Origin: Sphyrna mokarran
Taxonomy: Eukaryota
NCBI GenBank assembly: GCA_024679065.1
Contig: JAGIQG010000048.1
Coordinates: 62,001 to 126,000, forward strand
Reading direction: 5' to 3'
DNA: 64,000 bases
Both the position numbers and the translations under genes were made by a program. The notes under the pieces are model-generated. The model worked only from the letters and a program-made list of their open reading frames with translations, had not been told where the DNA came from and made no database searches. This document shows, piece by piece, positions 1-45,864 of this stretch (positions within the stretch are counted from its first letter, which is position 1; every line of letters starts with the position of its first letter).

Positions 1-31
1 CACATTCCCTGGGCTGTGTCATACAATAACC
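1..31 (-). other. JH recombination signal of the minus-strand cluster (nonamer plus 22 of 23 spacer bases; heptamer and JH lie outside the window)
   Basis: 1-31 is the exact reverse complement of 39382-39412 (GGTTATTGT plus spacer of the + cluster JH RSS); nonamer ACAATAACC at 23-31. Confidence 0.92.
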
Positions 32-384
32 GTCTCTGCACTAAATAGACACGCAAGCACCATTATTTTAAATATCCACAAACCCAAGGAAAAACAAAGT
101 CATTTAATGTTCAGTAAATTATAATTTTGGATTTCTGGATACCATTTGATATTTATAAATGACCCTAATGTTTTATATTTCACAGTAATTCATGAACGTG
201 TTATCGAAAACACCAATTAATAATTGAGTAATTATCAAGATTTTCCATGTTTATTTTTCTCAGGTGGTCTGTGCTGGATATAAATAATACTGTCCTGTGA
301 TTAAAGCTGGAATTTAAAAGTGACACTGATCCAGCTTCAATCAATCAGTGCTGAGGGGGTTTTGTATTGACAGTAACTGCTGTG

Positions 385-397
385 CTATTCCAGCTAT
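385..397 (-). other. IGHD: IgH diversity segment D2 of the minus cluster (ATAGCTGGAATAG), flanked by two 12-spacer RSS (357-384 and 398-425)
   Basis: CACAGTG 398-404 + 12 nt + ACAAATACT 417-425; other side TGCTGTG 378-384 + 12 nt + GGGTTTTGT 357-365. Confidence 0.93.
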
Positions 398-755
398 CAC
401 AGTGAGACACAGCATGACAAATACTGAGACAGACTGTTCACTGTAAAATGCAGATAATTAATTTCACTGCAATTTCAAAAGCCTGTTTCCAGCTCGGTAA
501 GAGTGAGATATTTCAATTTTTACTGGTCATGATATTGATAAAGGGGAATTAGAAACTTTTACAGTATCTGTGCACATTCAGCGTGCAAAACAACAACAAT
601 AAGATTGAAGCATTTTACATCTTAAAACAAAAAACAATGCTGTTTCTACCCATTATTTTGTTGAACCCTCATTTAGTCTGGCATTCGGCAGTGGCATTGT
701 AAGCAATGTCCTTCTGAGGTTTTTGTATGAGGATGTCGTTTTTCACAGCACAGTG

Positions 756-772
756 ACCCACTGCTGTAGTAT
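756..772 (-). other. IGHD: IgH diversity segment D1 of the minus cluster (ATACTACAGCAGTGGGT), 5' 12-RSS (773-800) and 3' 22-RSS (718-755)
   Basis: CACAGTG 773-779 + 12 nt + ACAAAAACT 792-800; GGTTTTTGT 718-726 + 22 nt + CACAGTG 749-755. Confidence 0.94.
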
Positions 773-1126
773 CACAGTGACACACAGCCATACAAAAACT
801 GCATTCAGTCCTACTGTTCAATATTCACTTCAAATGGACCATTAGTTTTGCTCTAATGCGAAATGTTTCTATAACACAATCTCTCAGAAATATTAAGAAG
901 ACGAACATATTGGAGTGTCGTTCCTGCTGACACTCCAATGAATATAAAGTCGGTGAAAAGCTCACCAGTTATATCCGTGAGTTTGTGAAGTTTTACTGTG
1001 AAACGTTTTGTGTTACTTTATTTAAAGGCGATTATAGTTTGGTTCTGACCACAGTCGATCATATTGCATTTGAAGCAGACGATGACCTTCAGGTTACGGA
1101 GGAAGATGCTGAATTCCCTCTGCAGT

Positions 1127-1165
1127 TGTCCTTGTACAGTTCCAGCCCTGGTTCCTCTCGCTGTG
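1127..1165 (-). other. VH 23-spacer RSS (minus cluster)
   Basis: Reads CACAGCG-23 nt-ACAAGGACA on the minus strand directly after the YYCARD codons. Confidence 0.92.
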
Positions 1166-1470
1166 GTCTCTTGCACAGTAATAGATGGCGGTGTCTTCAA
1201 TACTTAGACGCGCCATCTCCAAAGAGAAGATGTTGTTTGAAGTGTCTTTGGACGCCGTAAATCGGCCCTGAATTACGGGGGCGTACGCGTTACTGGATGA
1301 ACTTTTGTAGCTAACCAGCCACTCCAGTCCCTGTCCGGGAACCTGCCGGATCCAGCCCATCCAATAGCTGCCAAGGTTAAAGCCGCTGGTTTTACAGGTC
1401 AGTTTCAGGGAGGCTCCGGGACGGCCGGTCTCTGCCTCTTTCTGGGTCAACACAACCTCCGACTGGACAC
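1166..1470 (-). CDS. IGHV: Ig heavy-chain variable exon (VH), minus cluster, germline and open
   Basis: [53 protein letters not shown]...[11 protein letters not shown] with canonical V-domain Cys/Trp/YYC; AG acceptor at 1472-1471. Confidence 0.97.
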
Positions 1471-1595
1471 CTGTAAATAAAAAATCAAAAATTCTAAGGG
1501 TTAATCCTGGTGGAATGATTCTGGAGCATTCCAGAGATAGACTAACATTGAGACAGTAAAATGAGAGTCTTGGACAATGAAAATAAACTACTCAC

Positions 1596-1641
1596 CGGAT
1601 AAGAAAGTCAGCAACAAACTGAGACAAATCGCCGACCTCAT
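1596..1641 (-). CDS. IGHV: VH leader exon, minus cluster (MRSAICLSLLLTFLS)
   Basis: ATG at 1641, hydrophobic signal peptide, phase-1 GTGAGT donor, 125-bp intron to the V exon. Confidence 0.93.
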
Positions 1642-1730
1642 CTTTCTGGTGATTTGGGGGAAATGGTTGTGTCAGGAACTCAGTGAACAAACCAGCTCCC
1701 GGGCTGTTGGATTGCGGTGCCGGTGAGCGG

Positions 1731-1740
1731 TATTTAAATA
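1731..1740 (-). promoter_or_regulatory. TATA-like box of the minus VH promoter
   Basis: TATTTAAATA about 90 bp upstream of the leader ATG, preceded by a GC-rich block. Confidence 0.65.
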
Positions 1741-2647
1741 GCCGGTAGAAGGGGACGGCTTTCCGGGCACCGCCTGTTGATTCCCGGCTGGAGGCGGCGC
1801 CTGGATCCACCTTCCACACCCCCAGATAGAATGGACTCCCCAGATTGACAAGAATTCATACTCAAATGGACATTTGATCTGTGTCGGGCTATTTGTTTGG
1901 CTGAATCTGTTCATGGATTATTCCTGATGGTGATATTACAATTCATCATTTATTTATTAAAATGACCAATTCCGTTGTAAATACGGTGATTTTATTACCC
2001 CGCCCACAACAAGAAAACAAATCGAAAAATGATGGAATCACATTTGGGGAAATTAGACAATTTTGCAACAATTCCGTGCCTCTGCCACATTGGGATAATA
2101 AAACACAATTTATCCGAAGAAATAGCGTCGATTTCTGGAACTAAATGTGTGGAATATACAAAGTGATTGTATTTCCAGTGTGGATTCGGGTTTGAAGATG
2201 AGAAACAGCTCACACAGTATTTTCCTTGTATTTTTTTTCAAACTGTCCCAATCTGGAAGACAGCCCTCTGAAAATAATATGAATTCCTGAGAATTATATA
2301 ATTAATTGACAGAGAAACATAACATTAAATTGATTTTTGACTGAGAAGTGAATGAATTGGAATGCACACGAAGATCATTAAAGTTCTCCTTCAGCATCCA
2401 AATCATTGCAGCTCATTCTTTTGGCCACCGGCTGTCTAACATTCGCTGGTATCAGGAACACACATTGTACATTGCACAATGTCACAAGAATAAATGTTTT
2501 ATCTTCCATTCAAGCAGCTTATGAAATGATCATTTCTCCACTCATTGGCAACTACGAGAGGAACTCTTTAATAACAGAAATCAGCTTATACTGTACAATA
2601 AAACACGGTGCAAATCAGCTACAGGAGATGCTGCTGTTTTAATAGGG

Positions 2648-2929
2648 GTCATGATGTAAAGATGCCAGCGTTGGATTGGGGTAGTAAGAACTCAGTAAGA
2701 ATTTAGCAACACCAATTATTAATCCAACCGATTTATTTGATACTAAATCCGCGAGCTTTCAACACTCTTGTGTCTTCCTCAGGCAAGTGCAGTGTTCTGG
2801 TGTGTTCTGCAGTGTTCTGACCAGAACACTGCACTTGCCTGAGGAAGACACAAGAGTGTTGAAAGCTCGCGGATTTACTATCAAATAAATTGGTTGGATT
2901 AATAATTGGTGTTGCTAAATTCTTACTGA
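2648..2929. mobile_element. Penelope-like terminal-repeat insertion forming a hairpin (arms 2689-2801 / 2820-2932), with a 12-bp flanking direct repeat
   Basis: 113-bp inverted arms with 2 mismatches; GTTTTAATAGGG at 2636-2647 and 2930-2941; each arm carries CTGAGGA-stem-GAAAGCTC followed by AATAAA. Confidence 0.7.
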
Positions 2930-5900
2930 GTTTTAATAGGGTGCAGAACTTTCACAATATTACAGGAATCGCCGTTGTTCATGTCAGTTTTATGTTGCTG
3001 GTTTAATATTTCAATTCACTGGGGAACTGTTACCATCAACATCTCTCTCTCTCTCATTTCATGATGTGGTTAATACACATTAATTAATAGAATGAAATTT
3101 ACTTGGAAACTATACAATTGGAAAAAAAAGGTGACTTTATTGTTTTGTAATACTATTTACTCACATAACGAACAGGGCATTGAATGAAAATGCTTGATTA
3201 GAATGATTACCATTTTCTTGAGGGAATGAAACATTTATTATTAAAATGTCTGAATCCGGTTTTGTCCATTCAGGTTCACGCTAATCTGTGCCACGCAGTA
3301 TTTGGCAGCAATCCAGGCTGCTTTCAGATACTCAGTTATTGACAGGAAGCATCTGGGAGGGTTTGTGCAGTAGATCAAAGATCTGTTTCCTCAGTACTGA
3401 CCGCTTGGCTGCAAGTCAACTTGAAACTCTTCACGTTGTCAGTGTGGACTATTTATAAACAAATCTACCCAGCAACAGTGCGGGGGGGCACTTGAATTTT
3501 TGGAAGTTATAAATCTAGATGATGTGTTGCCATCTCTAAAGAAGGGATTAATATACACCTTCTTTGGCACCTTATTAATAACAGTGATGATTTATACATG
3601 AGGAGATTGTGATGGACGGATAGAAAGAATCACAGGCAGATGGAAAAGTGGCTCACAGAGAGCTTATATGTTGTTATATTTGAGCATGCACATTTATATT
3701 TTATTTCCTTTTATCTTTCCCTCGGATGTTTGGTTGGAAAGACCGACACTTTTTGCCTTTCCCAAATTCCCCTAAATTGATTGTTTTTCTGGGACACTTT
3801 CGAAGATATTAAAGAGTTAGCTATTTCACTCTCAGCCTGGATTTACATCCTTGTGAGGGAATGTAAGCAATGGCAGATTTCCTCCATTGGGGAATAAGGG
3901 GGAGGTTCTAGTCCACATTTATCAATAGAATTCAAAATCTACCTGCGGGAATGGCCCGACTTAAATCCCTGTCCTCACATCATTGGCCTGGGCCTCTGGA
4001 TCACCGGATCAATTAAATTAATATCATGTCACCGTCGACACAGACAATATATGTGTGACTGTGTTGACGCAGGAAGGAATGATATTTGAATGCCCCATGG
4101 ATAAATGCCTGTTGGATGCCTGAATATTTTGATTGAGGAAATATTGATCGATGGTACTGAATGATGCTGTTCTACATTTCCATGTTTGTGTTTGACTGCT
4201 TCATAAATTGAAAGAACTCCTTCATTCAATTTGTGTCCGTCTAATGCTTTCACTCCTTCCAGAGTGTCTGGGTGAAATCCATCCCGAGTTTCTCGGGAGT
4301 TTGCAAGCTGATCCTCACGAAGAGAAGGAGGAGATGGTCCTGGGGCTCAGATGGTTCATTTCTCTGCTGATGTTGAATCTTCGTATCCAAGACAGGAAGA
4401 AGGAGCATCATGTAGTTGAGGAGGGATGACTGTACTGTACAAAATACTGACTCTTTCATCGAATCAATCAACATACCCTCACCCAAATTAGTGAAGGCAA
4501 CAGGGCGAAAAGTAAATACGGCAACAACGGAAATATTTGTGAAACTCACTGGCCAACTACAGGTGTGACATTACTTCCCAAAACAGTGAAATAATGAATC
4601 GGAATTTAAAGATTCGGTAACTTCACATGAGGTACAGGTGACTCCATTTATATCATCACTTTGAAACCCACCCAGCTTTGTATCAGTACTTTCTGTGTGA
4701 TGATGAGGTGCTGACTTGTCAATGAAGTGCAGAGGCTGCTGGTTCATTCTCCTCCATCTGAATTAATTCCATTCCCCACTGAATTCTGGGACGGATTTTA
4801 TTCCTTGGTGGCAAAAAAGCCAATATATTGTCTATAAGTTTTAATACCAATAAATGATACGAAGCAAAGTGCAATTATACAGAAGGAAATACTGAAAATG
4901 AACAGAAAATACTGGATTATCTCAATAACATCTGTGGAGGCAGAACAGATCCTTTGTTTCAAATCTGGATGACGCTTCGGCAGAGAATTCCTGATGCTTT
5001 GGAGACACAATCATTGTGTCAGAAAAGCCAGATAAATTTCTGTGAGATGGGAATAACAGAAATAGTAGATACTATTTCAGACAAACACAAGCTGCATCAA
5101 TTCACAGAGTGATCCCAAATATCAGAACAAATTTCTTCATCCTAACCTAATCAACAACTCAATCACGAACTATATCCTTAAAAAAATCCTAATCCCTATC
5201 CACTCACATCATTTCTCAATTTCATTACTCTCTTCAATTTCCTCCAAATAAAAAAAATCTCACTGACTGGAAACTTTGGTTCTATTCTCTCTCCACAGAT
5301 GCTATCAGACCCGTTGAGATTTTCCAACATTCATTATTTTTGTTTGAGTTTCCAGAATCTGCAGTATTTTGCTTTGATCAAACTGATGAACATAATTGGT
5401 GATCTAATTGTATGAATTGATGATAACTGGAGAATTGGAACAACCTCGCTTATAAATTCCTCTCCAAGATACTCACAAGCCCCACTTGGACCAATCCTTT
5501 ACTAACGCTGCCTCGGAATCCGGGGGAATCCTCCCTAAGAGCACTGTCGGTGTACCTACACTGCAGGTTCTGCAGCAATTGAATAAGGCGGCTCCCCACC
5601 AGCTTGCCGAATGCAGCTGGCAATGGGGAATAAGTGGGGGCCTCGACAACATCGCCTTCCGACTTTAAAGTCATTTTAAATATACTCCTCTTTGTGTATG
5701 AATGAGAGCTGATGAATGAAATGATTAAATTGCAAACAGATTGTAATTGGTGAAAAGAATTACTCTCTTTCTGAACTTTATTTTGACATTCTCCTTATTT
5801 GCTCCAGGATCATTAATTACTCGGCGCTGTCTCAGTTCATGCTAAGAAGTTCCTATATCAGTAAAACTGTGTGTGTGAGACACTGTCTCAGTTTTATTCC

Positions 5901-8061
5901 CCTTGGCATTGTCATTTTTCAATATGTTTCATTCACGGGATCTGGGTGTCATTGGGATTTGACATTTGACCACCCCCCACTCGGCACTAACTCACTTCTA
6001 TTTTCTTGTATCAGGCCCCCGTTTATATTAAAATAAGTCTGGCTCTGTTAATACTCTGCTGGACCAGAGCTCAGTTTACATTGCACACGGCATTCTCTCT
6101 GGTTATGTATACTTGATACTGACCCTGTATTTCTCTCACTAGACGGGGTCAATTTAGTTCCTGCACTTAACTACGCCTCTCTTTGAATTATGTTGGTTTT
6201 ACTCCACTGTTTTGTGAGAAAAACAAATCATATGTTGGGATAAAAAAGATTGCTATCAGGCAAGATGCAGAACCAGGCATATTGGTTCACCAGTATTTTA
6301 TTGTGCTGTATTTTGCTTTTCTTTTGTTTTTCATTGACAGTGCACAAGACTTGATATCCATTTTCAATGCAGTCAGCAGAAGTAGATTTCAGATATCGCT
6401 TCTTCTTTTCCCCTGTTCAAAACCTGATAGAGTTTGCATTTGTAGAAGGATGCAGAGATTTGTGTTCTGCCAGCTAGTTTCATCATTACTGCCCTTGACC
6501 AGTGCAATAAAAACTGAGCCCATGTCCCAATGCAATAAAAACATGGAGACGGTCAATTACAGAAGTAAAACTGCATCTAGTTTGATACAAACAGAGACAG
6601 ATCTAAAATAATATAAACACAATTAACATCTAGTTTAATATAAACAGAAACATAAACCAGAACAGTGTCTAATTTAGTACAGATAATACATCCAATTTAC
6701 TGTGTGTAGAGACTTAAAATTCTACGTGCAAGATAAAAAGGGTCTAGTGGATGTGGCTTATCATATAAGCTGACACAGGCTACATTTACTGTAATATAAA
6801 GAGACTGGTTCAATCCCCATGAAATTTGTAGAGACAGTTGACTGTCCCATTGAAAACTTACAGGACAGGAGTAACACGGGGTTAGCTGCGGAATTTCCCC
6901 TCTGCTCTGGCAAATGAATAACTCCCAAAGCAGGAATAGCATGATTTGGATGCAAAGTGAATCGCCTTCAATTCAAACATTCCAAGAACAGTCTACTGTC
7001 TATAAACAGAGTGAAACTCCGTCTACAAATCTGTTCAAACAATATTAAGGCAGAAAGGGCATGGACGCTCTTCTATGTAAAAACTCTCCTGCTCTCTCCC
7101 TTCAGAGATTCAGGAGGCAGGTTTCAATTAGCGTTAGGAATAGGGGAAAGAGCCGCCTGCACAGTTCCACAAAACACACCCAGGCCAGGTACGGCAGAGA
7201 TTAGATACGGATTAAATCTTCCTTGACAAAGATGCATCAAACGTCCATAAGCCAAATACAATGAGTTGAGATGCAGAGTAAATATTCCTCGACTCTGTCC
7301 GGTCAAATACTCCAAGGACAGGGACAGCACTGGCTAAATATAGGGAAAAGTTCCACATTGAATCCTTACCACCAGGTTAGACGCAGAAGAAAATGTATCA
7401 AGTATTTCAAGATCATGGATTTCTCAAGAGATCTGTTTGAGTAATTCTCAGTCATAGATTGCAATTTATTGAATTACATTATTTTAGAAGCCTGTAACTC
7501 TGGCTGAGAGAGGACATTGGGCTGACATGGACTTTATGCTGTGGAGTTAAGACAATGAACCATTTTGGAGAGACAGGACACAGACAGGAGAAAGACAGAG
7601 ATAGAGATGAAACACGGGGAGATTTACAGGAACACATTTGCTGTGTCATTACATTTAGGATCAGAGGGATTATTCCTTAATTCTGAACATAGGTATCATC
7701 ATGATGTTTTTTTCCTCACATAACTGATGAAGAAATGATGTTGAAAACAATCCTCACTGGAATCCGTTGATTGATTTGCATGGTTGTCTCTATTTCTGGG
7801 CTGTGTTGGTGGGGAAATATTTGCTGTGTTTTTATCAGTCAACAATCTAATTCGGAATTTCTATTTCTGTATTTATTTACATAAATACCTCAGTGTTTAC
7901 AATGAAATGTCCGTGACAACAAAACCAGATAAACCGTCACTTATTGATCAGTTTCAATTCAAAATTGTGGTTTATTTTAAGAATTTTAACGGTTGGTTCA
8001 AAATGAATCGAAACTTTTTGAACATTTATAACACCAGTTCTGATGTCACAATTAATTCATT

Positions 8062-8690
8062 TACCAGGCAACATCCTGGTAAACCTCCTCTGCACCCTCT
8101 CCAATGCCTCCACATCTTTCTTATAATGCGGGGACCAGAACTGCACACAATACTCCAAGTGCGGCCGCACTAGAGTTTTGTAGAGTTGCAACATGACATT
8201 GCGGCTCCGAAATTCAATCCCCCTACCAATAAAAGCTAAGACTCCATATGCCTTCTTAACAACCTTATCGACTTGACTGCCTTCTTTCAGGGATCTATGC
8301 ACATATACACCAAGATCCCTCTGTTCATCAACACTATTAAGAATCCACCATTAGCCCTATACTCTACACATTTATTATTCCTGCCAAAGTGCATTACCTC
8401 ACACTTTTCCACATTAAGCTCCATTTGCCACCTCTCGGCCCAGCTCTGCAACTTGTCCAAGTCACTCTGTAAACTAAAACACACCTCTTCACTATCTACC
8501 ACACCACCAACTTTAGTATCATCTGCAAATTTACTGATCCATCCCTCAATACCCTCATCCAGATCATTTATAAAAATTACAACAGCAGGGGCCCCAAAAC
8601 AGACCCCTGAGGCACACCACTTGTCACCGAACTCCACGATGAATATCTCCCATCAACCACCACCCTCTGTCTTCTATCTGCTAGCCAAAA
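8062..8690 (-). mobile_element. CR1 LINE reverse-transcriptase fragment (part of the fold-back duplicate)
   Basis: ORF fragments with [25 protein letters not shown] and [19 protein letters not shown]. Confidence 0.92.
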
Positions 8691-9339
8691 TTTGCCCGTA
8701 ATTATTTCCCATCCCAGTGTTGTATTGGGTTGGGGAAATCATCATTGTTACTAACAAGGTGCCAGAGAATCGGGATACCTTTCTTTTCCCAAGGAAATGG
8801 AAAGCATGCATCAGCTTTCCAGATTTAAAAAAAATCATTAAGTTAGCTCCAGTACTGTTACTAGGCAGATTTGTTCAGAAATAGGCTCCATTGACAATGC
8901 TGAGAGTTTGAAGTTGGATTGCAGCCAATCGCTCAGCACTGAGGAAACAGATTGTCGACTTACTGAACAAACAGCGTCGGATGCTTCCTGTAAATATCTT
9001 GGCGTATTTGGGAGCAAATTGGACTGGAGCCAAGTACTGCGTAGGACGGATTAACGTGGACATGTAGGGATAAAATGGGACTTAACCAGTCCCACAATAA
9101 ATACTTGATTCCCACAATAAAGACACGTTTTAAATGGTATTCACTCCAAGCAATATTTTCAGGGACTGTACTGTGATTAAACAGTAACAGAAATGGGTAA
9201 ATTGGATCGATCCATTTGTGTAGATCCATTTGGTGATCTAATTGAGGCGTATAAGATGATCAGAGGGTTAGATAGGGTGGATAGTGAGAGCATTTTTCCT
9301 CAGATGGAGAAAGCTAACACGAGGGGACATAGCTTTAAA

Positions 9340-9630
9340 TCATGTCACACTATCTGTAACCCCCACGACTTGCCTGGGTTAGCAAAAAACCTCACTTACT
9401 GTGCTGTCTGGAGACAGTACACATCTCTCTAATCTGTGCTCAGTGCTCCTTCCACTCACATTGTCAGCCACTTTAAGACTTGAATAGCAGGTGAGGTGTA
9501 AGGATTCACATTCTAATCAGCAATCTGTAACTGTCTATGCTGATATGTGTGCTATTGCAGACCAGAACACCTCATTCGCCTGATGAAGGCACAAACACCG
9601 AAAGCTAGCAAGTTTACTATGAAATAAATC
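9340..9630 (+). mobile_element. Penelope-like element 3' end with a hammerhead-like motif (9580-9607)
   Basis: Begins MSHYL* (mirror copy reads DLSFMSHYL*, like the C-terminus of vertebrate Penelope ORFs); CTGATGA...CCGAAAGCTA followed by AATAAA. Confidence 0.65.
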
Positions 9631-9649
9631 AGAATGACATTTATTTGGA

Positions 9650-10008
9650 AGTTAGAACATAGAACATTACAGCGCAGTACAGGCCCTTCGGCCCTCGATG
9701 TTGCGCCGACCAATGGAACCAATTTTATGACCCTCTATCCTAAAGTATTCCAATGCTATCCATCTGCCTATCCACTGACCATTTGAACGCCCTTAAACTT
9801 GGTGAGTCCACAACTGCTGTAGGCAGGGCATTCCATGCCCTTACCACCCTCTGAGTAAAGAACCCACCTGTAACATCTGTCCTAGAACTACCACCCCTTA
9901 ATTTAAAGCTATGTCCCCTCGTGTTAGCTTTCTCCATCCGAGGAAAAATGCTCTCACTATCCACCCTATCTAACCCTCTGATCATCTTATACACCTCAAT
10001 TAGATCAC
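9650..10008 (-). mobile_element. CR1 LINE 3' end
   Basis: GDLIEVYKMIRGLDRVD...TRGHSFKL...FFTQRVVRAWNALP; TTCTATG-type tail at about 9652-9667. Confidence 0.92.
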
Positions 10009-10549
10009 CAAATGGATCTACACAAATGGATCGATCCAATTTACCCATTTCTGTTACTGTTTAATCACAATACAGTCCCTGAAAATATTGCTTGGAGTGA
10101 ATACCATTTAAAACGTGTCTTTATTGTGGGAATCAAGTATTTATTGTGGGACTGGTTAAGTCCCATTTTATCCCTACATGTCCACGTTAATCCGTCCTAC
10201 GCAGTATTTGGCTCCAGTCCAATTTGCTCCCAAATACGCCAAGATATTTACAGGAAGCATCCGATGCTGTTTGTTCAGTAAGTCGAAAATCTGTTTCCTC
10301 AGTGCTGAGCGATTGGCTGCAATCCAACTTCAAACTCTCAGCATTGTCAATGGAGCCTATTTCTGAACAAATCTGCCTAGTAACAGTACTGGAGCTAACT
10401 TAATGATTTTTTTAAATCTGGAAAGCTGATGCATGCTTTCCATTTCCTTGGGAAAAGAAAGGTATCTCGATTCTCTGGCACCTTGTTAGTAACAATGATG
10501 ATTTCCCCAACCCAATACAACACTGGGATGGGAAATAATTACCGGCAAA

Positions 10550-11611: not shown

Positions 11612-11865
11612 AATTGTGAGAGTTGATTCAGAGAGGTGATATATCTTATACTGTATAAACATTGTTGTGTTTTATTTCATTTTATTCTTCCAGGGGACGC
11701 GGGAGTCACTGGAAAGAACACCATTTGTTTCCTGTGCTAAATTCCTTTTCAGCTGAGTGGTGTGTGAGGGCATCTTAGAAGGCATTGTCTAGTTATGTAC
11801 ATGGCGGCCCATCTTGAGTTACAGCCCGCTGAGACATGTAGGGATGGCAGATTTCCTTCACTGGG

Positions 11866-13770: not shown

Positions 13771-14013
13771 AATTAAAACGTCAATATATCAATGTTTATG
13801 AATGGATGATGACTAAAATTATGCATCTTTGAGAATGGATGGCAATTGATGGAAATAAATACCAACTTTCTGAACATTTATGACCTTCGCACTTGTAGTT
13901 CTCCTTTCGCTCTGGACTCGGATCAATATCAGTTGTTCCTCGATGAGACCAGGACCCTATTTAAACTGTACTTTCTGAGTTATAACTGTGCTGAACTATA
14001 TTTCAGTTAATAT

Positions 14014-29420: not shown

Positions 29421-29951
29421 TGCCCGTAATTATTTCCCATCCCAGTGTTGTATTGGGTTGGGGAAATCATCATTGTTACTAACAAGGTGCCAGAGAATCG
29501 GGATACCTTTCTTTTCCCAAGGAAATGGAAAGCATGCATCAGCTTTCCAGATTTAAAAAAATCATTAAGTTAGCTCCAGTACTAGGCAGATTTGTTCAGA
29601 AATAGGCTCCATTGACAATGCTGAGAGTTTGAAGTTGGATTGCAGCCAATCGCTCAGCACTGAGGAAACAGATTTTCGACTTACTGAACAAACAGCATCG
29701 GATGCTTCTTGTAAATATCTTGGCGTATTTGGGAGCAAATTGGACTGGAGCCAAATACTGCGTAGGACGGATTAACGTGGACATGTAGGGATAAAATGGG
29801 ACTTAACCAGTCCCACAATAAATACTTGATTCCCACAATAAAGACACGTTTTAAATGGTATTCACTCCAAGCAATATTTTCAGGGACTGTACTGTGATTA
29901 AACAGTAACAGAAATGGGTAAATTGGATCGATCCATTTGTGTAGATCCATT

Positions 29952-30310
29952 TGGTGATCTAATTGAGGTGTATAAGATGATCAGAGGGTTCGGTAGGGTG
30001 GATAGTGAGAGCATTTTTCCTCGGATGGAGAAAGCTAGCACGAGGGGGCATAGCTTTAAATTAAGGGGTGGTAGTTATAGGACAGATGTTAGAGGTGGGT
30101 TCTTTACTCAGAGGGTGGTAAGGGCATGGAATGCCCTGCCTACAGCAGTTGTGGACTCACCAAGTTTAAGGGCGTTCAAATGGTCAGTGGATAGGCAGAT
30201 GGATAGCATGGGAATACTTTAGGATAGAGGGTCATAAAATTGGTTCCATTGGTCGGCGCAACATCGAGGGCCGAAGGGCCTGTACTGCGCTGTAATGTTC
30301 TATGTTCTAA
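29952..30310 (+). mobile_element. CR1 LINE 3' end (mirror of 9650-10008)
   Basis: ORF 29914-30222 GDLIEVYKMIRG...WNALP; tail TGTTCTATGTTCTA. Confidence 0.92.
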
Positions 30311-30329
30311 CTTCCAAATAAATGTCATT

Positions 30330-30632
30330 CTGATTTATTTCATAGTAAACTTGCTAGCTTTCGGTGTTTGTGCCTTCGTCAGGTGAATGAGGTGTTCTGG
30401 TCTGCAATAGCACACATATCAGCATAGACAGTTACAGATTGCTGATTAGAATGTGAATCCTTACATCTAACCTGCTATTCAAGTCTTAAAGTGGCTGACA
30501 ATGTGAGTGGAAGGAGCACTGCGCACAGATTAGAGAGATGTGTATTGTCTCCAGACAGCACAGTAAGTGAGGTTTTTTGCTAACCCAGGCAAGTCGTGGG
30601 GGTTACAGATAGTGTGACATGAAGCTAAGATC
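30330..30632 (-). mobile_element. Penelope-like element 3' end with a hammerhead-like motif (mirror of 9340-9630)
   Basis: Minus strand reads DLSFMSHYL*, then CTGACGA...CCGAAAGCTA and AATAAA. Confidence 0.65.
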
Positions 30633-33600
30633 GTAATAACATGGAATCATAGAATCCCTACAGTCAACAGGGAGGTCATTCACTGCAATAATCCTGCAGC
30701 GGGCTTTCCAGCAGAGCATCCCACCGAGGCAAATCTTCATTAGATCCAGACAACCACACATATTCATAGGCTAATCCACCGAACCTACACATTATTGGAC
30801 ACTAACAGGAAATTTAGCAAAGACAACTTACACTGGATCTGGGAAGGATGCTCTGCTGGGTAACTGGTGCAGGCTTGATGAATGTTCTCCTTCTGCACTG
30901 TAGGGATTCTATGATTCTACTTTGCGCATCATTGGAAGCTAAGGGGCAATTTATCACAGCCAATCCACCTAAACTGCAAATCCTGGGACTGTGAAAGGAA
31001 ACTGGAGCACTCGGAGGATCCCACATGGATATGGATAGAATTTGAAAACCATACACAGTCACCCAGTGTTGGAATCGATCCCGCTTCCCTGTCGCCTGTG
31101 AGGCAGCAAAGCTAATTGCATCTCTTAGTGATAACCACATTAGATTTTTTTACTCTTCCTTCCCGTGAGTTTGATCAATATTTGTGACAGAAATACTTCA
31201 GACATCAGATTTTTTTAAAATTTAACTTGTCTAATTTAAACAGATCAAATCCTCAATCAAATTAACATTTAGTGGAATATCTGGCTGTTCACAAATGCTT
31301 TATTAATTGTGACATCAGAACTTTCAGAACTAATTCTGAAATGGAATGTATCATTTTCTTTGAATTAAATGCAACTGGTGTTATAAATGTTCAAAAAGTT
31401 TCGATTCATTTTGAACCAACCGTTAAAATTCTTAAAATAAACCACAATTTTGAATTGAAACTGATCAATAAGTAATGGTTTATCTGGTTTTGTTGTCACG
31501 GACATTTCATTGTAAACACTGAGGTATTTATGTAAATAAATATGAAAATAGAAATTCCGAATTAGATTGTTGACTGATAAAAACACAGCAAATATTTCCC
31601 CACCAACACAGCCCAGAAATAGAGACAACCATGCAAATCAATCAACGGATTCCAGTGAGGATTGTTTTCAACATTATTTCTTCATCAGTTATGTGAGGAA
31701 AAAAACATCATGATGATATCTATGTTCAGAATTAAGGAATAATCCCTCTGATCCTAAATGTAATGACACAGCAAATGTGTTCCTGTAAATCTCCCTGTGT
31801 TTCATCTCTATCTCTGTCTTTCTCCTGTCTGTGTCCTGTCTCTCCAAGATGGTTCATTGTCTTAACTCCACAGCATAAAGTCCATGTCAGCCCAATGTCT
31901 TCTCTCAGCCAGAGTTACAGGCTTCTAAAATAATGTAATTCAATAAATTGCAATCTGTGACTGAGAATTACTCAAACAGATCTCTTGAGAAATCCATGAT
32001 CTTGAAATACTTGATACATTTTCTTCTGCGTCTAACCTGGTGGTAAGGATTCAATGTGGAACTTTTCCCTATATTTAGCCGGTGCTGTCCCTGTCCTTGG
32101 AGTATTTGACCGGACAGAGTAGAGGAATATTTACTCTGCGTCTCAACTCATTGTATTTGGCTTATGGACGTTTGATGCATCTTTGTCAAGGAAGATTTAA
32201 TCCGTATCTAATCTCTGCCGTACCTGGCCTGGGTGTGTTTTGTGGAACTGTGCAGGCGGCTCTTTCCCCTATTCCTAACGCTAATTGAAACCTGCCTCCT
32301 GAATCTCTGAAGGGAGAGAGCAGGAGAGTTTTTACATAGAAGAACGTCCATGCCCTTTCTGCCTTAGTATTGTTTGAACAGATTTGTAGACGGAGTTTCA
32401 CTCTGTTTCTAGACAGTAGACTGTTCTTGGAATGTTTGAATCGAAGGCGATTCACTTTGCATCCAAATCATGCTATTCTGCTTTGGGAGTTATTCATTTG
32501 CCAGAGCAGAGGGGAAATTCCGCAGCTAACCCCGTGTTACTCCTGTCCTGTAAGTTTTTGATGGGACAGTAAACTGTCTCTACAAATTTCATGGGGATTG
32601 AACCAGTCTCTTTATATTACAGTAAATGTAGCCTGTGTCAGCTTATATGATAAGCCACATCCACTAGACCCTTTTTATCTTGCACGTAGAATTTTAAGTC
32701 TCTACACATAGTAAATTGGATGTATTATCTGTACTAAATTAGACACTGTTCCGGTTTATTTTTCTGTTTATATTAAACTAGATGTTAATTGTGTTTATAT
32801 TATTTTAGATCTGTCTCTGTTTGTATCAAACTAGATGCAGTTTTACTTCTGTAATTGACCGTCTCCATGTTTTTATTGCATTGGGACATGGGCTCAGTGT
32901 TTATTGCACTGGTCAAGGGCAGTAATGATGAAACTAGCTGGCAGAACACAAATCTCTGCATCCTTCTACAAATGCAAACTCTATCAGGTTTTGAACAGTG
33001 GAAAAGAAGAAGCGATATCTGAAATCTACTTCTGCTGACTGCATTGAAAATGGATATCAAGTCTTGTGCACTGTCAATGAAAAACAAAAGAAAAGCAAAT
33101 TACAGCACAATAAAATACTGGTGAACCAATATGCCTGGTTCTGCATCTTGCCTGATAGCAATCTTTTTTATCCCAACATATGATTTGTTTTTCTCACAAA
33201 ACAGTGGAATAAAACCAACATAATTCAAAGAGAGGCGTAGTTAAGTGCAGGAACTAAATTGACCCCGTCTAGTGAGAGAAATACAGGGTCAGTATCAAGT
33301 ATACATAACCAGAGAGAATGCCGTGTGCAATGTAAACTGAGCTCTGGTCCAGCAGAGTATTAACAGAGCCAGACTTATTTTAATATAAACGGGGGCCTGA
33401 TACAAGAAAATAGAAGTGAGTTAGTGCCGAGTCGGGGGGTGGTCAAATGTCAAATCCCAATGACACCCAGATCCCGTGAATGAAACATATTGAAAAATGA
33501 CAATGCCAAGGGAAATAAAACTGAGACAGTGTCTCACACACACAGTTTTACTGATATAGGAACTTCTTAGCATGAACTGAGACAACGCCGAGTAATTAAT

Positions 33601-36485
33601 GATCCTGGAGCAAATAAGGAGAATGTCAAAATAAAGTTCAGAAAGAGAGTAATTCTTTTCACCAATTACAATCTGTTTGCAATTTAATCATTTCATTCAT
33701 CAGCTCTCATTCATACATAAAGAGGAGTATATTTAAAATGACTTTAAAGTCGGAAGGCGATGTTGTCGAGGCCCCCACTTATTCCCCATTGCCAGCTGCA
33801 TTCGGCAAGCTGGTGGGGAGCCGCCTTATTCAATTGCTGCAGAACCTGCAGTGTAGGTACACCGACAGTGCTCTTAGGGAGGATTCCCCCCGGATTCCGA
33901 GGCAGCGTAAGTAAAGGATTGGTCCAAGTCGGGCTTGTGAGTATCTTGGAGAGGAATTTATAAGCGAGGTTGTTCCAATTCTCCAGTTATCATCAACTCA
34001 TACAATTAGATCACCAATTATGTTCATCAGTTTGATCAAAGCAAAATACTGCAGATTCTGGAAACTCAAACAAAAATAATGAATGTTGGAAAATCTCAAC
34101 GGGTCTGATAGCATCTGTGGAGAGAGAATAGAACCAAAGTTTCCAGTCAGTGAGATTTTTTTTTATTTGCAGGAAATTGAAGAGAGTAATGAAATTGAGA
34201 AATGATGTGAGTGGATAGGGATTAGGATTTTTTTAAGGATATAGTTCGTGATTGAGTTGTTGATTAGGTTAGGATGAAGAAATTTGTTCTGATATTTGGG
34301 ATCACTCTGTGAATTGATGCAGCTTGTGTTTGTCTGAAATAGTATCTACTATTTCTGTTATTCCCATCTCACAGGAAATTTATCTGGCTTTTCTGACACA
34401 ATGATTATGTCTCCAAAGCATCAAGAATTCTCTGCCGAAGCGTCATCCAGATTTGAAACAAAGGATCTGTTCTGCCTCCACAGATGTTACTGAGATAATG
34501 CAGTATTTTCTGTTCATTTTCGGTATTTCCTTCTGTATAATTGTACTTTGCTTCGTATCATTTATTGGTATTAAAACTTATAGACAATATATTGGCTTTT
34601 TTGTCACCAAGGAATAAAATCCGTCCCAGAATTCAGTGGGGAATGGAATTAATTCAGATGGAGGAGAATGAACCAGCAGCCTCTGCACTTCATTGACAAG
34701 TCAGCACCTCATCATCACACAGAAAGTACTGATACAAAGCTGGGTGGGTTTCAAAGTGATGATATAAATGGAGTCACCTGTACCTCATGTGAAGTTACCG
34801 AATCTTTAAATTCCGATTCATTATTTCACTGTTTTGGGAAGTAATGTCACACCTGTAGTTGGCCAGTGAGTTTCACAAATATTTCTGTTGTTGCCGTATT
34901 TACTTTTCGCCCTGTTGCCTTCACTAATTTGGGTGAGGCCATGTTGATTGATTCGATGAAAGAGTCAGTATTTTGTACAGTACAATCATCCCTCCTCAAC
35001 TACATGATGCTCCTTCTTCCTGTCTTGGATACGAAGATTCAACATCAGCAGAGAAATGAACCATCTGAGCCCCAGGACCATCTCCTCCTTCTCTTCGTGA
35101 GGATCAGCTTGCAAACTCCCGAGAAACTCGGGATGGATTTCACCCAGACACTCTGGAAGGAGTGAAAGCATTAGACAGACACAAATTGAATGAAGGAGTT
35201 CTTTCAATTTATGAAGCAGTCAAACACAAACATGGAAATGTAGAACAGCATCATTCAGTACCATCGATCAATATTTCCTCAATCAAAATATTCAGGCATC
35301 CAACAGGCATTTATCCATGGGGCATTCAAATATCATTCCTTCCTGCGTCAACACAGTCACATATATACTGTTTGTGTCGACGGTGACATGATATTAATTT
35401 AATTGATCCGGTGATCCAGAGGCCCAGGCCAATGATGTGAGGACAGGGATTTAAGTCGGGCCATGCCCGCAGGTAGATTTTGAATTCTATTGATAAATGT
35501 GGACTAGAACCTCCCCCTTATTCCCCAATGGAGGAAATCTGCCATTGCTTACATTCCCTCACAAGGATGTAAATCCAGGCTGAGAGTGAAATAGCTAACT
35601 CTTTAATATCTTCGAAAGTGTCCCAGAAAAACAATCAATTTAGGGGAATTTGGGAAAGGCAAAAAGTGTCGGTCTTTCCAACCAAACATCCCAGGGAAAG
35701 ATAAAAGGAAATATAATATAAATGTGCATGCTCAAATATAACAACATATAAGCTCTCTGTGAGCCACTTTTCCATCTGCCTGTGATTCTTTCTATCCTTC
35801 CATCACAATCTCCTCATGTATAAATCATCACTGTTATTAATAAGGTGCCAAAGAATGTGTATATTAATCCCTTCTTTAGAGATGGCAACACATCATCTCG
35901 ATTTATAACTTCCAAAAATTCAAGTGCCCCCCCGCACTGTTGCTGGGTAGATTTGTTTATAAATAGTCCACACTGACAACGTGAAGAGTTTCAAGTTGAC
36001 TTGCAGCCAAGCGGTCAGTACTGAGGAAACAAATCTTTGATCTACTGCACAAACCCGCCCAGATGCTTCCTGTCAATAACTGAGTATCTGACAGCAGCCT
36101 GGATTGCTGCCAAATACTGCGTGGCACAGATTAGCGTGAACCTGAATGGACAAAACCGGATTCAGACATTTTAATAATAAATGTTTCATTCCCTCAAGAA
36201 AATGGTAATCATTCTAATCAAGTATTTTCATTCAATGCCCTGTTCGTTATGTGAGTAAATAGTATCACTAAACAATAAAGTCACCTTTTTTTTCCAATTG
36301 TATAGTCTCCAGGTAAATTTCGTTCTATTAATTAATGTGTATTAACCACATCATGAAATGAGAGAGAGAGAGATGTTGATGGTAACAGTTCCCCAGTGAA
36401 TTGAAATATTAAACCAGCAACATAAAACTGACATGAACAACGGCGATTCCTGTAATATTGTGAAAGTTCTGCACCCTATTAAAAC

Positions 36486-36767
36486 TCAGTAAGAATTTAG
36501 CAACACCGATTATTAATGCAACCGATTTATTTGATAGTAAATCCGCGAGCTTTCAACACTCGTGTGTCTTCCTCAGGCAAGTGCAGTGTTCTGGTCAGAA
36601 CACTGCAGAACACACCAGAACACTGCACTTGCCTGAGGAAGACACAAGAGTGTTGAAAGCTCGCGGATTTAGTATCAAATAAATCGGTTGGATTAATAAT
36701 TGGTGTTGCTAAATTCTTACTGAGTTCTTACTACCCCAATCCAACGCTGGCATCTTTACATCATGAC
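36486..36767. mobile_element. Mirror copy of the Penelope-like hairpin insertion
   Basis: Reverse complement of 2648-2929; CCCTATTAAAAC repeats at 36474-36485 and 36768-36779. Confidence 0.7.
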
Positions 36768-37674
36768 CCCTATTAAAACAGCAGCATCTCCTGTAGCTGA
36801 TTTGCACCGTGTTTTATTGTACAGTATAAGCTGATTTCTGTTATTAAAGAGTTCCTCTCGTAGTTGCCAATGAGGGGAGAAATGATCATTTCATAAGCTG
36901 CTTGAATGGAAGATAAAACATTTATTCTTGTGACATTGTGCAATGTACAATGTGTGTTCCTGATACCAGCGAATGTTAGACAGCCGGTGGCCAATAGAAT
37001 GAGCTGCAATGATTTGGATGCTGACGGAGAACTTTAATGATCTTCGTGTGCATTCCAATTCATTCACTTCTCAGTCAAAAATCAATTTAATGTTATGTTT
37101 CTCTGTCAATTAATTATATAATTCTCAGGAATTCATATTATTTTCAGAGGGCTGTCTTCCAGATTGGGACAGTTTGAAAAAAAATACAAGGAAAATACTG
37201 TGTGAGCTGTTTCTCATCTTCAAACCTTAATCCACACTGGAAATACAATCACTTTGTATATTCCACACATTTAGTTCCAGAAATCGACGCTATTTCTTCG
37301 GATAAATTGTGTTTTATTATCCCAATGTGGCAGAGGCACGGAATTGTTGCAAAATTGTCTAATTTCCCCAAATGTGATTCCATCATTTTTCGATTTGTTT
37401 TCTTGTTGTGGGCGGGGTAATAAAATCCCCGTATTTACAACGGAATTGGTCATTTTAATAAATAAATGATGAATTGTAATATCACCATCAGGAATAATCC
37501 ATGAACAGATTCAGCCAAACAAATAGCCCGACACAGATCAAATGTCCATTTGAGTATGAATTCTTGTCAATCTGGGGAGTCCATTCTATCTGGGGGTGTG
37601 GAAGGTGGATCCAGGCGCCGCCTCCAGCAGGGAATCAACAGGCGGTGCCCGGAAAGCCGTCCCCTTCTACTGGC

Positions 37675-37684
37675 TATTTAAATA
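37675..37684 (+). promoter_or_regulatory. TATA-like box of the plus VH promoter
   Basis: TATTTAAATA about 90 bp upstream of ATG 37774. Confidence 0.65.
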
Positions 37685-37773
37685 CCGCTCACCGGCACCG
37701 CAATCCAACAGCCCGGGAGCTGGTTTGTTCACTGAGTTCCTGACACAACCATTTCCCCCAAATCACCAGAAAG

Positions 37774-37819
37774 ATGAGGTCGGCGATTTGTCTCAGTTTA
37801 TTGCTGACTTTCTTATCCG
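37774..37819 (+). CDS. IGHV: VH leader exon (MRSAICLSLLLTFLS)
   Basis: ATG 37774, signal-peptide character, phase-1 donor GTGAGT at 37820. Confidence 0.93.
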
Positions 37820-37944
37820 GTGAGTAGTTTATTTTCATTGTCCAAGACTCTCATTTTACTGTCTCAATGTTAGTCTATCTCTGGAATGCTCCAGAATCAT
37901 TCCACCAGGATTAACCCTTAGAATTTTTGATTTTTTATTTACAG

Positions 37945-38249
37945 GTGTCCAGTCGGAGGTTGTGTTGACCCAGAAAGAGGCAGAGACCGTCCGTCCCGGA
38001 GCATCCCTGAAACTGACCTGTAAAACCAGCGGCTTTAACCTTGGCGACTATTACATGGCTTGGATCCGGCAGGTTCCCGGACAGGGACTGGAGTGGCTGG
38101 TTAGCTACTATAGTTCATCCAGCAACGATTACGCCCCCGGAATTGAGGGCCGATTTACGGCGTCCAAAGACACTTCAAACAACATCTTCTCTTTGGAGAT
38201 GTTGCGTCTAAGGATTGAAGACACCGCCATCTATTACTGTGCAAGAGAC
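37945..38249 (+). CDS. IGHV: Ig heavy-chain variable exon (VH), germline and open
   Basis: TTTACAG acceptor; [49 protein letters not shown]...[11 protein letters not shown]. Confidence 0.97.
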
Positions 38250-38288
38250 CACAGCGAGAGGAACCAGGGCTGGAACTGTACAAGGACA
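38250..38288 (+). other. VH 23-spacer RSS
   Basis: CACAGCG 38250-38256, 23 nt, ACAAGGACA 38280-38288. Confidence 0.92.
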
Positions 38289-38642
38289 ACTGCAGAGGGA
38301 ATTCAGCATCTTCCTCCGTAACCTGAAGGTCATCGTCTGCTTCAAATGCAATATGATCGACTGTGGTCAGAACCAAACTATAATCGCCTTTAAATAAAGT
38401 AACACAAAGCATTTCACAGTAAAACTTCACAAACTCACGGATATACCTGGTGAGCTTTTCACCGACTTTATATTCATTGGAGTGTCAGCAGGAACGACAC
38501 TCCAATATGTTAGTCTTCTTAATATTTCTGACAGACTGTGTTATAGAAACATTTCGCATTAGAGCAAAACTAATGGTCCATTTGAAGTGAATATTGAACA
38601 GTAGGACTGAATGCAGTTTTTGTATGGCTTTGTGTCACTGTG

Positions 38643-38658
38643 ATACTATATAGTGGGT
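38643..38658 (+). other. IGHD: IgH diversity segment D1 (ATACTATATAGTGGGT), 5' 12-RSS 38615-38642 and 3' 22-RSS 38659-38696
   Basis: AGTTTTTGT-12-CACTGTG; CACTGTG-22-ACAAAAACC. Confidence 0.94.
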
Positions 38659-39015
38659 CACTGTGCTGTGAAAAACGACATCCTCATACAAAAACCTCAG
38701 AGGGACATTGCTTACAATGCCACTGCCGAATGCCAGACTAAATGAGGGTTCAACAAAATAATAGGTAGAAACAGCATTGTTTTTTGTTTTAAGATGTAAA
38801 ATGCTTCAATTTTATTGTTGTTGTTGTTTTGCACGCTGAATGTGCACAGTGTAAAAGTTTCTAATTCCCCTTTATCAATATCATGACCAGTAAAAATTGA
38901 AATATCTCACTCTTACCGAGCTGGAAACAGGCTTTTGAAATTGCAGTGAAATTAATTATCTGCATTTTACAGTTAACAGTCTGTCTCAGTATTTGTCATG
39001 CTGTGTCTCACTGTG

Positions 39016-39028
39016 ATAGCTGGTATAG
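39016..39028 (+). other. IGHD: IgH diversity segment D2 (ATAGCTGGTATAG), 12-RSS on both sides (38988-39015, 39029-39056)
   Basis: AGTATTTGT-12-CACTGTG; CACAGCA-12-ACAAAAACC. Confidence 0.93.
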
Positions 39029-39381
39029 CACAGCAGTTAGTGTCAATACAAAAACCCCTCAGCACTGATTGATTGAAGCTGGATCAGTGTCACTTTTAAA
39101 TTCCAGCTTTAATCACAGGACAGTATTATTTATATCCAGCACAGACCACCTGAGAAAAATAAACATGGAAAATCTTGATAATTTCTCAATTATTAATTGG
39201 TGTTTTCGATAACACGTTCATGAATTACTCTGAAATATAAAACATTAGGGTCATTTATAAATATCAAATGGTAGCCAGAAATCCCAAATTATAATTTACT
39301 GAACATTAAATGACTTTGTTTTTCCTTGGGTTTGTGGATATTTAAAATAATGGTGCTTGCGTGTCTATTTAGTGCAGAGAC

Positions 39382-39420
39382 GGTTATTGTATGACACAGC
39401 CCAGGGAATGTGACACTGTG
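39382..39420 (+). other. JH 23-spacer RSS
   Basis: GGTTATTGT-23-CACTGTG. Confidence 0.94.
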
Positions 39421-39468
39421 ACTACTTCGATTACTGGGGACAAGGGACCATGGTGACGGTGACTTCAG
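39421..39468 (+). CDS. IGHJ: JH segment (YFDYWGQGTMVTVTS)
   Basis: WGxG motif, upstream RSS, GTAAG donor at 39469. Confidence 0.97.
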
Positions 39469-45845: not shown

Positions 45846-45864
45846 CAGTGACAATTTTTGATAA

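Follow-up and report, generated by a model that had tools for sequence, protein, structure and literature searches.

A mirrored pair of IgM units in Sphyrna mokarran, probably linked paralogues from an old inverted duplication

Two IgH units of Sphyrna mokarran lie head-to-head in the DNA described here, and the question is whether they form a real pair of linked genes or were brought together by the assembly. The window, which is the whole stretch of 64,000 nucleotides analysed, was compared with itself by BLAST, and three collinear inverted blocks were observed, far beyond chance. They define two arms around a spacer:

1 to 8039 with 39412 to 31373, inverted block 1, 98.4%, 13,905 bits
9340 to 12108 with 30622 to 27860, inverted block 2, 97.7%
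13800 to 17313 with 27863 to 24334, inverted block 3, 96.2% gaps included
1 to 17313, minus strand, left arm of the inverted duplication (17,313 bp), running off the left end of the window
24334 to 39412, plus strand, right arm of the inverted duplication (15,079 bp)
17314 to 24333, spacer of 7,020 bp, containing a 167-N gap
19004 to 19170, assembly gap of 167 N, its left flank ending in a C-rich run

Between the arms 255 substitutions were counted in 14,291 aligned columns (98.2% identity). The start codons, at 1641 (minus strand) in the left unit and 37774 (plus strand) in the right, are 36,133 bp apart, in agreement with the figure of about 36 kb in the first-pass annotation. That annotation also described 15-17 kb of duplicated flank around a spacer of about 7 kb interrupted by the gap; these sizes and the gap are borne out, but the arms are not continuous copies of each other. 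The mirror ends at 39412 because the window begins at position 1, and the length of about 39 kb is therefore that of the part inside the window.

Judged from its sequence, the right unit is a complete shark IgM gene, V-D-D-J-Cmu1-4-TM, with the following features:

37774 to 37819, plus strand, leader exon
37945 to 38249, plus strand, VH exon, an open frame with a Pfam V-set match
38250 to 38288, plus strand, V RSS with a 23-bp spacer
38615 to 38696, plus strand, D1 (38643-38658, 16 nt) with a 12-RSS and a 22-RSS
38988 to 39056, plus strand, D2 (39016-39028) with a 12-RSS on each side
39382 to 39420, plus strand, J RSS with a 23-bp spacer
39421 to 39468, plus strand, JH with a GT donor
48452 to 48751, plus strand, Cmu1 exon
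48964 to 49278, plus strand, Cmu2 exon
50684 to 50992, plus strand, Cmu3 exon
52041 to 52432, plus strand, Cmu4 exon with a secretory tailpiece ending in CQ and a stop
after 52370, plus strand, internal donor for the membrane form of Cmu4
52460 and 52469, AATAAA signals 3' of Cmu4
56121 to 56248, plus strand, TM1 exon
56389 to 56397, plus strand, TM2 exon, two residues and a stop

The split leader, single VH, two D segments and single JH span 1.7 kb from the ATG at 37774 to the end of J at 39468, and the order of the RSSs, whose motifs were scored against the RSS consensus, is 12/23-compatible (V-23, 12-D1-22, 12-D2-12, 23-J). The four Cmu exons, the secretory tail with its penultimate cysteine and the TM exons have AG/GT splice sites and open frames. 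Cmu4 is 95% identical to IgM of Triakis scyllium and all exons match shark IgM; a PDB sequence search returned generic antibody domains only, and the V-length protein search gave three hits among 18 candidates (72-78% identity). Assignments to IgW, IgNAR or IgM1gj were rejected, since the best matches are to IgM, the C exons are four and V is unrearranged, whereas IgW and IgNAR have C domains of their own type and IgM1gj has a germline-joined V and lacks Cmu2. The first-pass annotation missed this constant region and the concentration of V-exon differences in the CDRs, and it proposed a search for Cmu to the left of the window; Cmu exons are already present in the window on the right (48452-56397). 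In Cmu4 we noticed a proline where 34 of 35 aligned homologues have leucine and, at another position, an arginine found in none of 36 matches. Given these two unusual residues, the right gene may perhaps be impaired.

The left unit was found on the minus strand:

1596 to 1641, minus strand, leader exon
1166 to 1470, minus strand, VH exon, an open frame with a Pfam V-set match, 79% identical to Triakis scyllium IgM V
1127 to 1165, minus strand, V RSS with a 23-bp spacer, identical to the right V RSS
718 to 800, minus strand, D1 (756-772, 17 nt) with a 12-RSS (773-800) and a 22-RSS (718-755)
357 to 425, minus strand, D2 (385-397) with a 12-RSS on each side, the 3' nonamer with one extra mismatch
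1 to 31, minus strand, J-RSS nonamer (31-23) and 22 of the 23 spacer bases

It mirrors the plus cluster as had been claimed, with V, D1 and D2 RSSs present in both units, and has the leader, VH, D1 and D2 of a minilocus with intact RSSs. The description of both as V-D-D-J units holds in full for the right one, while the J-RSS heptamer of the left and any J and C exons belonging to it lie outside the window. The best reading is still that an IgH minilocus of a cartilaginous fish was duplicated in inverted orientation, and the two IgM units are probably linked paralogues derived from an old event of this kind. We also consider it likely that they are truly adjacent across the gap in this orientation.

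Around the gap, no repeat or reading frame was found to cross it, and the two spacer halves flanking it show no homology to each other by BLASTN or TBLASTX (best E 0.31). A six-frame Pfam scan of 16000-24999 gave no families in any of the six frames, the spacer showed no V domain, and Rfam gave no matches in the whole 64 kb. A V-like stretch near 19800-20000 was rejected as neither similarity nor Pfam scans confirmed it. AT skew across the gap (0.03 vs 0.10) was uninformative. A LINE fragment of the left arm (15284-15684) matches a spacer LINE (23310-23710) at 97.5% and looked like cross-gap conversion; it is no evidence of proximity because the alignment shows the right-arm copy to be the changed one. 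Two real paralogous IgM clusters, farther apart or otherwise oriented, might have been mis-joined here by the scaffolder, a case in which all the evidence for paralogy holds equally and no feature would be seen crossing the gap. Both gap flanks are single-copy within the window, which argues against a mis-join, as does the small, odd gap size, which together with the C-rich flank suggests a local coverage drop-out; an odd length such as 167 points to a size that was derived from spanning pairs, as is scaffolder practice. With 15-200 IgH loci in sharks (partial text of PMC2435157), upstream flanks may nevertheless be multi-copy, and the gap flanks could also occur beside further IgM clusters and so draw in spurious links. 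Reported spacings are also wide, at least 120 kb in the publications found and at least 171 kb for head-to-head pairs in the white shark. On balance we regard a mis-join as unlikely.

The arms also differ in structure, in ways that bear on their origin:

8040 to 9339, segment present only in the left arm
12109 to 13799, segment present only in the left arm, 1.7 kb
30623 to 31372, segment present only in the right arm, 750 bp
24170 to 24520, plus strand, SINE-like repeat, unbroken across the inner boundary of the right arm (24334)

At 8040-9339 a 54-bp microhomology skip is followed by 17 bases templated by the right-only segment (the insert and a 4-bp microhomology lie at 8036-8056), after which the segment continues as an inverted copy (8062-9340) of 9901-11179. 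The 1.7-kb segment was likely deleted on the right, because part of it (12668-12944) matches an old paralogous segment at 4525-4790 with 69% identity, and the 750-bp segment was likely deleted on the left, because an alignment of old paralogues continues past its boundary. At the main junction, 17313, the left copy of the SINE-like repeat is cut, and no clear inverted microhomology is seen there. As the repeat is cut on the left and whole on the right, and given the skip, the templated insert and the nested inversion, we infer that the left arm is the copy and that it may have been made by replication template switching. When the nested copy was compared with both arms in 1,268 columns, unique sites numbered 23 in the copy, 13 in the left arm and 12 in the right. 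A single 82-bp cluster accounts for 11 of the 23, and when it is set aside all three sequences are equally far apart, which is what formation of the copy at the arm split would predict. An older nested copy with a subsequent, old left-right exchange fits this three-way pattern too, so that it does not decide between the two.

These changes also bear on whether the arms are two divergent alleles of a single IgM locus that were assembled separately and then placed head-to-head by the scaffolding. This caveat of the first-pass annotation was apt: the gap sits in the spacer, the same gene ends both arms, and CDR-focused differences also fit balancing selection. Immune loci can, moreover, far exceed genome-average polymorphism. 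V alleles exist in the nurse shark (partial text of PMC2435157). We favour paralogues because non-repeat divergence between the arms is 1.44% (172 of 11,911 columns), against a mean diversity of 0.2% in the epaulette shark (PMC10587355), a yardstick that comes from another shark order; diversity differs widely between sharks (partial text of PMC9826928). The excess is about sevenfold over 14 kb of mostly non-coding sequence. In addition, the three arm-specific structural changes are derived in both directions, and with the inner junction four rearrangements would need to segregate. Homology stops inside the SINE-like repeat, and none reappears over the 1.7 kb of spacer on the left or the 5.2 kb on the right, two halves that share no homology with each other. 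From the geometry, a simple deletion allele would pair-link 17314, not 19003, to 19171. We therefore judge alleles improbable and paralogues the better reading.

The duplication had been called recent, which is doubtful in view of the 1.44% non-repeat divergence and the three arm-specific structural changes. At the rate of the epaulette shark, a member of another shark order, the arms would have split about 10 million generations ago (5-51). Arm-to-arm conversion had also been proposed; no recent tract was found, as the longest substitution-free run measures 312 bp where permutations give a median of 360 (P=0.79), and older conversion may have occurred. Palindromes maintained by conversion, of the Y-chromosome type, have arm identities above 99.9%, and this type was rejected here, where identity is 98.2% and no long identical tract is present. 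A special case of real adjacency would be a young palindrome homogenised by ongoing conversion, with its genes co-regulated from the spacer. It would account for the lower divergence near the genes (78/6,568) than in the inner and middle blocks (117/6,010; P=0.0007), for the mild overdispersion of binned counts (P=0.027) and for the nested copy being further from both arms than these are from each other. However, the identical run is no longer than stated above, the three structural differences were left unrepaired, the V exons are the most diverged part, and the sole clear conversion-like tract raises the difference between the arms:

26080 to 26330, plus strand, LINE-fragment tract, 22 of 244 columns differing, in which the right copy is the odd one out

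Shared upstream control is not required either, because 13-16 kb of upstream DNA is present separately at each gene, and such a young palindrome is highly improbable. A technical fold-back from a chimeric read or an amplification artefact, which a second, nearly perfect palindrome adjoining a gap (59445-62947) might favour, has a negligible probability and was rejected as the origin of the 39-kb structure, since it predicts identical arms whereas the arms show 146 transitions, 109 transversions, 22 small indels, large indels and codon-level V changes around a long unique spacer.

The V exons were observed to be about fivefold more diverged than their flanks, with 18 substitutions in 305 bases vs 98 in 7,728 in the rest of the same block (P=3e-7), and the differences fall mostly in the CDRs. 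Ten amino acids differ between left and right; changed codons make up 7/27 of the CDR and 3/74 of the framework codons (P=0.003), the CDR limits being set from motifs by us. The leader intron shows no difference in 125 bases. Selection is not separable from patchwork conversion by other V genes, because pS is also raised and dN/dS is only 1.34, on 14.5 and 3.5 differences. WRCY/RGYW motifs are hotspots of somatic hypermutation, and eight of the 18 differences lie at such motifs, which cover 79 of the 305 sites (P=0.06, not significant). Five adjacent-base doublets were noticed among the 18 substitutions. The V, D1 and D2 segments all carry bases that distinguish the two units.

Returning to linked paralogues, an old inverted duplication of the right-hand gene with 13 kb of upstream DNA would have produced the pair. 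The arms appear to have evolved largely independently since, without recent conversion, and the coding parts of V and D1 seem to have diverged faster than the flanks, which would give two related specificities. Each unit is predicted to be transcribed outwards from its own promoter and to rearrange mainly within itself by deletion, as in the nurse shark; V and D1 of a unit are 393 bp apart. A join from one unit to the other would require 37.5 kb to be inverted and is expected to be rare.

Palindromic structures are known from other IgH loci. In mammals, the palindrome at the IgH 3' regulatory region surrounds enhancers that lie downstream of C-alpha and contains no rearranging genes; it resembles the present structure as a long inverted repeat at an IgH locus. 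Avian IgH loci contain palindromes whose arms enclose a non-palindromic spacer; they are ascribed to FoSTeS/MMBIR template switching in a preprint whose available text calls the architecture unique to birds and does not contain the word 'shark' (bioRxiv 10.64898/2026.09.05.749481). The same text describes these palindromes as copying V genes inside a single translocon and proposes that they supply gene conversion. In the present pair an entire rearranging unit has been mirrored, once, and there is no sign of recent conversion. In teleost IgL, opposed segments in close clusters permit inversional joining within and between clusters (partial text of PMC5192425). There, V is inverted relative to its own J, whereas the clusters here are internally collinear and only cross-cluster joins would invert.

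Among sharks, nurse shark IgM miniloci lie at least 120 kb apart (partial texts of PMC2435157 and PMC5192425), in contrast to the 36 kb between ATGs, the head-to-head order and the 98% identical flanks found here. On white shark chromosome 27, four of eight neighbouring IgM pairs are head-to-head by our own count from the coordinates of Table S1 (PMC12227049), and these minus-then-plus neighbours are divergent as in the present pair. In the closest of these pairs the neighbours are separated by 171 and 172 kb, with intervening TCR V genes, and the part of that text available to us reports no arm identity. The spacing here is about one fifth of theirs, and the spacer yielded no V domain. A closely spaced inverted IgM pair in sharks was not found by title or abstract start; supplements may hold such coordinates. 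The spacing of 36 kb is thus closer than the published spacings found, all at least 120 kb, and head-to-head orientation itself is already known.

What the pair means depends on the join. If it is false, an ordinary IgM locus is left, with a caution about Ig assemblies. If the adjacency is real, the arrangement of the RSSs would permit V genes to be swapped between clusters by inversion, as the left V 23-RSS and the right D1 12-RSS have the same orientation. Shark IgH clusters are considered to rearrange almost exclusively internally, wide spacing being part of the explanation for this and for heavy-chain exclusion, and one apparent interlocus join was reported among 58 thymic VDD-J clones (partial text of PMC2435157). 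A broader scheme, in which shark IgM clusters are born head-to-head, RAG inversion swaps their V genes and AID-type mutation reaches the germline, seems rather unlikely. Were it true, a left V/right D1 join would be a 37.5-kb inversion that exchanges V genes with nothing deleted, V swapping would open a minicluster system to combinatorial diversity and receptor editing and bring it a step closer to a translocon, and the five doublets would be the signature of shark somatic hypermutation, that is, of AID-type mutation in the germline. If real, the pair would record the birth of a cluster by inverted duplication and the pace of CDR divergence, and, as a close pair with distinguishable V, D1 and D2 segments, would offer a natural test of cross-cluster joining and joint opening.

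Self-comparison of the window bore out the coordinates and strands of the first-pass annotation, which had placed two IgH units head-to-head in a ~39 kb palindrome. Three inverted collinear blocks (1-8039/39412-31373, 9340-12108/30622-27860 and 13800-17313/27863-24334) pair a left arm of 17,313 bp with a right arm of 15,079 bp around a spacer of 7,020 bp, and the mirror's end at 39412 is set solely by the window start at position 1. Global alignment of the arms gave 255 substitutions in 14,291 columns (1.78%; 146 transitions and 109 transversions) and 22 small indels.

Features of the two units and arms
1641-1596, minus strand, left leader
1470-1166, minus strand, left V exon (open frame, Pfam V-set match)
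37774-37819, plus strand, right leader
37945-38249, plus strand, right V exon (open frame, Pfam V-set match)
39421-39468, plus strand, JH of the right unit
19004-19170, assembly gap of 167 N inside the spacer
8040-9339, left-only segment: 54 bp are skipped at a microhomology of 4 bp, 17 bases have the right-only segment as their template, and 1.28 kb is an inverted duplicate of 9901-11179
30623-31372, right-only segment, with an old paralogous alignment (69%) running through it
12109-13799, left-only segment containing an old paralogous match

The two ATGs lie 36,133 bp apart and both units carry the signals V-23, 12-D1-22 and 12-D2-12, as scored against the RSS consensus. The 23-J signal is complete in the right unit; at the window edge the left unit retains the nonamer of its J signal together with 22 bases of the spacer. 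The right JH is followed by an 8,983-bp intron and then by Cmu1-4 with a secretory tail, TM1 and TM2, with AG/GT sites at all exons and both secretory and membrane forms in open frame. In a protein search (36 hits of 161 candidates) its Cmu4 shared 95% identity with Triakis scyllium IgM, 90% with Scyliorhinus torazame and 84% with nurse shark, which points to a carcharhiniform shark as the likely source. In its organization the unit is a typical elasmobranch IgM minilocus. Right before the first Cys, this Cmu4 (52041-52432) carries Pro, against Leu in 34 of 35 aligned homologues, and four residues past that Cys it carries Arg, against Gly, Asp, Asn or Lys in the 36 hits; given these two residues, the right gene may be impaired, possibly a hypomorph. 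A protein labelled Aeromonas veronii (P0006) is 94% identical to the right Cmu4 and probably represents host contamination. In the J-Cmu1 intron, minus-strand RSS-like sites at 40609-40646 and 43085-43121 (spacers of 22 and 21 bp) may be due to chance. The same intron holds long, strongly skewed CA/CT-rich and purine-rich tracts (44100-45850 and 46950-47500); switch regions are said to be absent from sharks (PMC4279169).

We consider it probable that the two arms are truly adjacent as assembled. The gap is small and odd-sized with a C-rich flank, both its flanks are single-copy within the window, and if one arm were a deletion allele, scaffolding would be expected to attach the left spacer piece by its opposite end. 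No feature spans the gap; no homology was found between the two spacer halves, and no Pfam domain in the spacer around it. Real clusters could have been linked falsely at the gap as mis-joined paralogues, since multi-copy IgM flanks could produce false links, and we regard this as unlikely. Slightly less likely still is that the arms are alleles: unusual polymorphism is possible at Ig loci, but the arm divergence is ~7x the 0.2% epaulette diversity, derived rearrangements occur on both arms and the duplication junction is sharp.

Three segments in total are arm-specific. The paralogous alignment crossing 30623-31372 indicates probable deletion from the left arm, and the match within 12109-13799 probable deletion from the right. 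A SINE-like repeat (our own label, from copies inside the window) runs unbroken over the inner boundary at 24334 on the right and is truncated at 17313 on the left; we infer that the right arm and spacer are the original and the left arm probably the duplicate. A SINE-like repeat is also shared, at 96.6% identity and in the same orientation, between 20156-20387 in the spacer and 58162-58394 past TM2. A three-way comparison over 1,268 columns gave 23 private sites for the nested copy (the inverted duplicate in 8040-9339), 11 of them within one 82-bp cluster, with 13 for the left and 12 for the right. This pattern fits formation of the nested copy at the arm split in a single template-switching event, and also an older nested copy followed by an old left-right arm exchange.

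With the V exon and a single LINE tract of 244 columns set aside, 215 of 13,738 columns differ between the arms; outside a repeat mask, which is incomplete as it was made from six in-window repeats, 172 of 11,911 do (1.44%). At the epaulette-shark rate, from another order, of 7e-10 per generation (CI 1.4-14.1e-10; PMC10587355), the split dates to about 10 million generations ago (5-51). The first-pass interpretation, an inverted duplication open to arm-to-arm conversion, is supported in part. Recent conversion between the arms left no sign: the longest substitution-free run was 312 columns, where permutation gave a median of 360 (P=0.79). On the other side, divergence beside the genes is 1.19%, below the 1.95% nearer the spacer (P=0.0007), and shows mild overdispersion (P=0.027); older conversion, constraint or repeat content may account for this. 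A tract of the right-arm LINE fragment 26080-26330 is 9% diverged from its left mirror, probably because a different LINE copy converted it; the left copy and the spacer LINE at 23310-23710 share 97.5% identity.

The V exons (37945-38249 and 1166-1470) differ at 18 of 305 bases versus 98 of 7,728 in the remaining block (P=3e-7), while the leader intron (125 bp) and V RSS are identical; D1 measures 16 and 17 nt in the two units. Ten V codons change the amino acid, seven of 27 in CDRs and three of 74 in framework (P=0.003, with CDR limits set by us). Since dN/dS (1.34) rests on small counts and pS is raised too, these figures do not tell diversifying selection apart from patchwork conversion by other V genes. 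Five adjacent-base doublets occur among the 18 germline differences (P=0.0013 against uniform placement; P=0.027 once CDR clustering is allowed for), compared with six among 215 in the flanks (P=0.12). These are reminiscent of the tandem substitutions that mark shark somatic hypermutation (PMC4279169), and are only a lead because none of the five straddles a codon boundary and the V differences were not significantly enriched at hotspots (P=0.06).

Control elements shared between the two units, as the first-pass annotation suggests, are hypothetical, and a separate upstream copy belongs to each gene. Within this copy, a near-perfect 244-bp hairpin (2689-2932 and 36483-36726; DNA fold -133 kcal/mol, z -33) precedes each leader ATG by ~1.05 kb; being in both arms, it predates the duplication, and it may be MITE-like or a small template-switch product. 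Exact copies of the octamer motif occur in the window only at 7774 and 31631, ~6.1 kb upstream of each ATG, with none at the promoters. Each arm's upstream region also contains an old tandem duplication of ~6.5 kb (24615-30402 versus 31221-36596, mirrored on the left), preserved in pieces at 69-77% identity and without a second V. Furthermore, 3 kb beyond TM2, a second palindrome (59445-62947; spacer 131 bp) has unique arms matching at 392 of 393 bases. It is flanked by a 56-bp satellite (~33 units on one side, 6 on the other), terminates at an N gap and could be a foldback-type element or an assembly fold-back.

Transcription of each unit is predicted to start at its own promoter and run outwards, and rearrangement to proceed by deletion inside the unit, over a V-to-D1 distance of 393 bp. 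The left V 23-RSS (1165-1127) and the right D1 12-RSS (38642-38615) both point leftward, so that the 12/23 rule and this geometry would permit an inversional V swap. Such joining would invert 37.5 kb without any deletion, putting the left V ahead of the D-D-J-C of the right unit and, reciprocally, the right V ahead of the left D1. In nurse shark, joining is kept inside the minilocus, with one of 58 thymic VDD-J clones seemingly interlocus (PMC2435157).

Published IgM miniloci are spaced 120 to over 200 kb apart (PMC5192425 and PMC2435157). White shark chromosome 27 has nine IgM models (PMC12227049, Table S1); by our count from that table, four of eight neighbouring pairs are head-to-head, the closest at 171 and 172 kb. 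The head-to-head orientation is therefore already known; the short spacing and whole-unit palindrome were not found in the open-licence literature searched. According to a 2026 preprint (bioRxiv 10.64898/2026.09.05.749481), the template-switch palindromes of bird IGH are found in birds alone. The structure described here would be a single shark parallel to them, involving an entire cluster.
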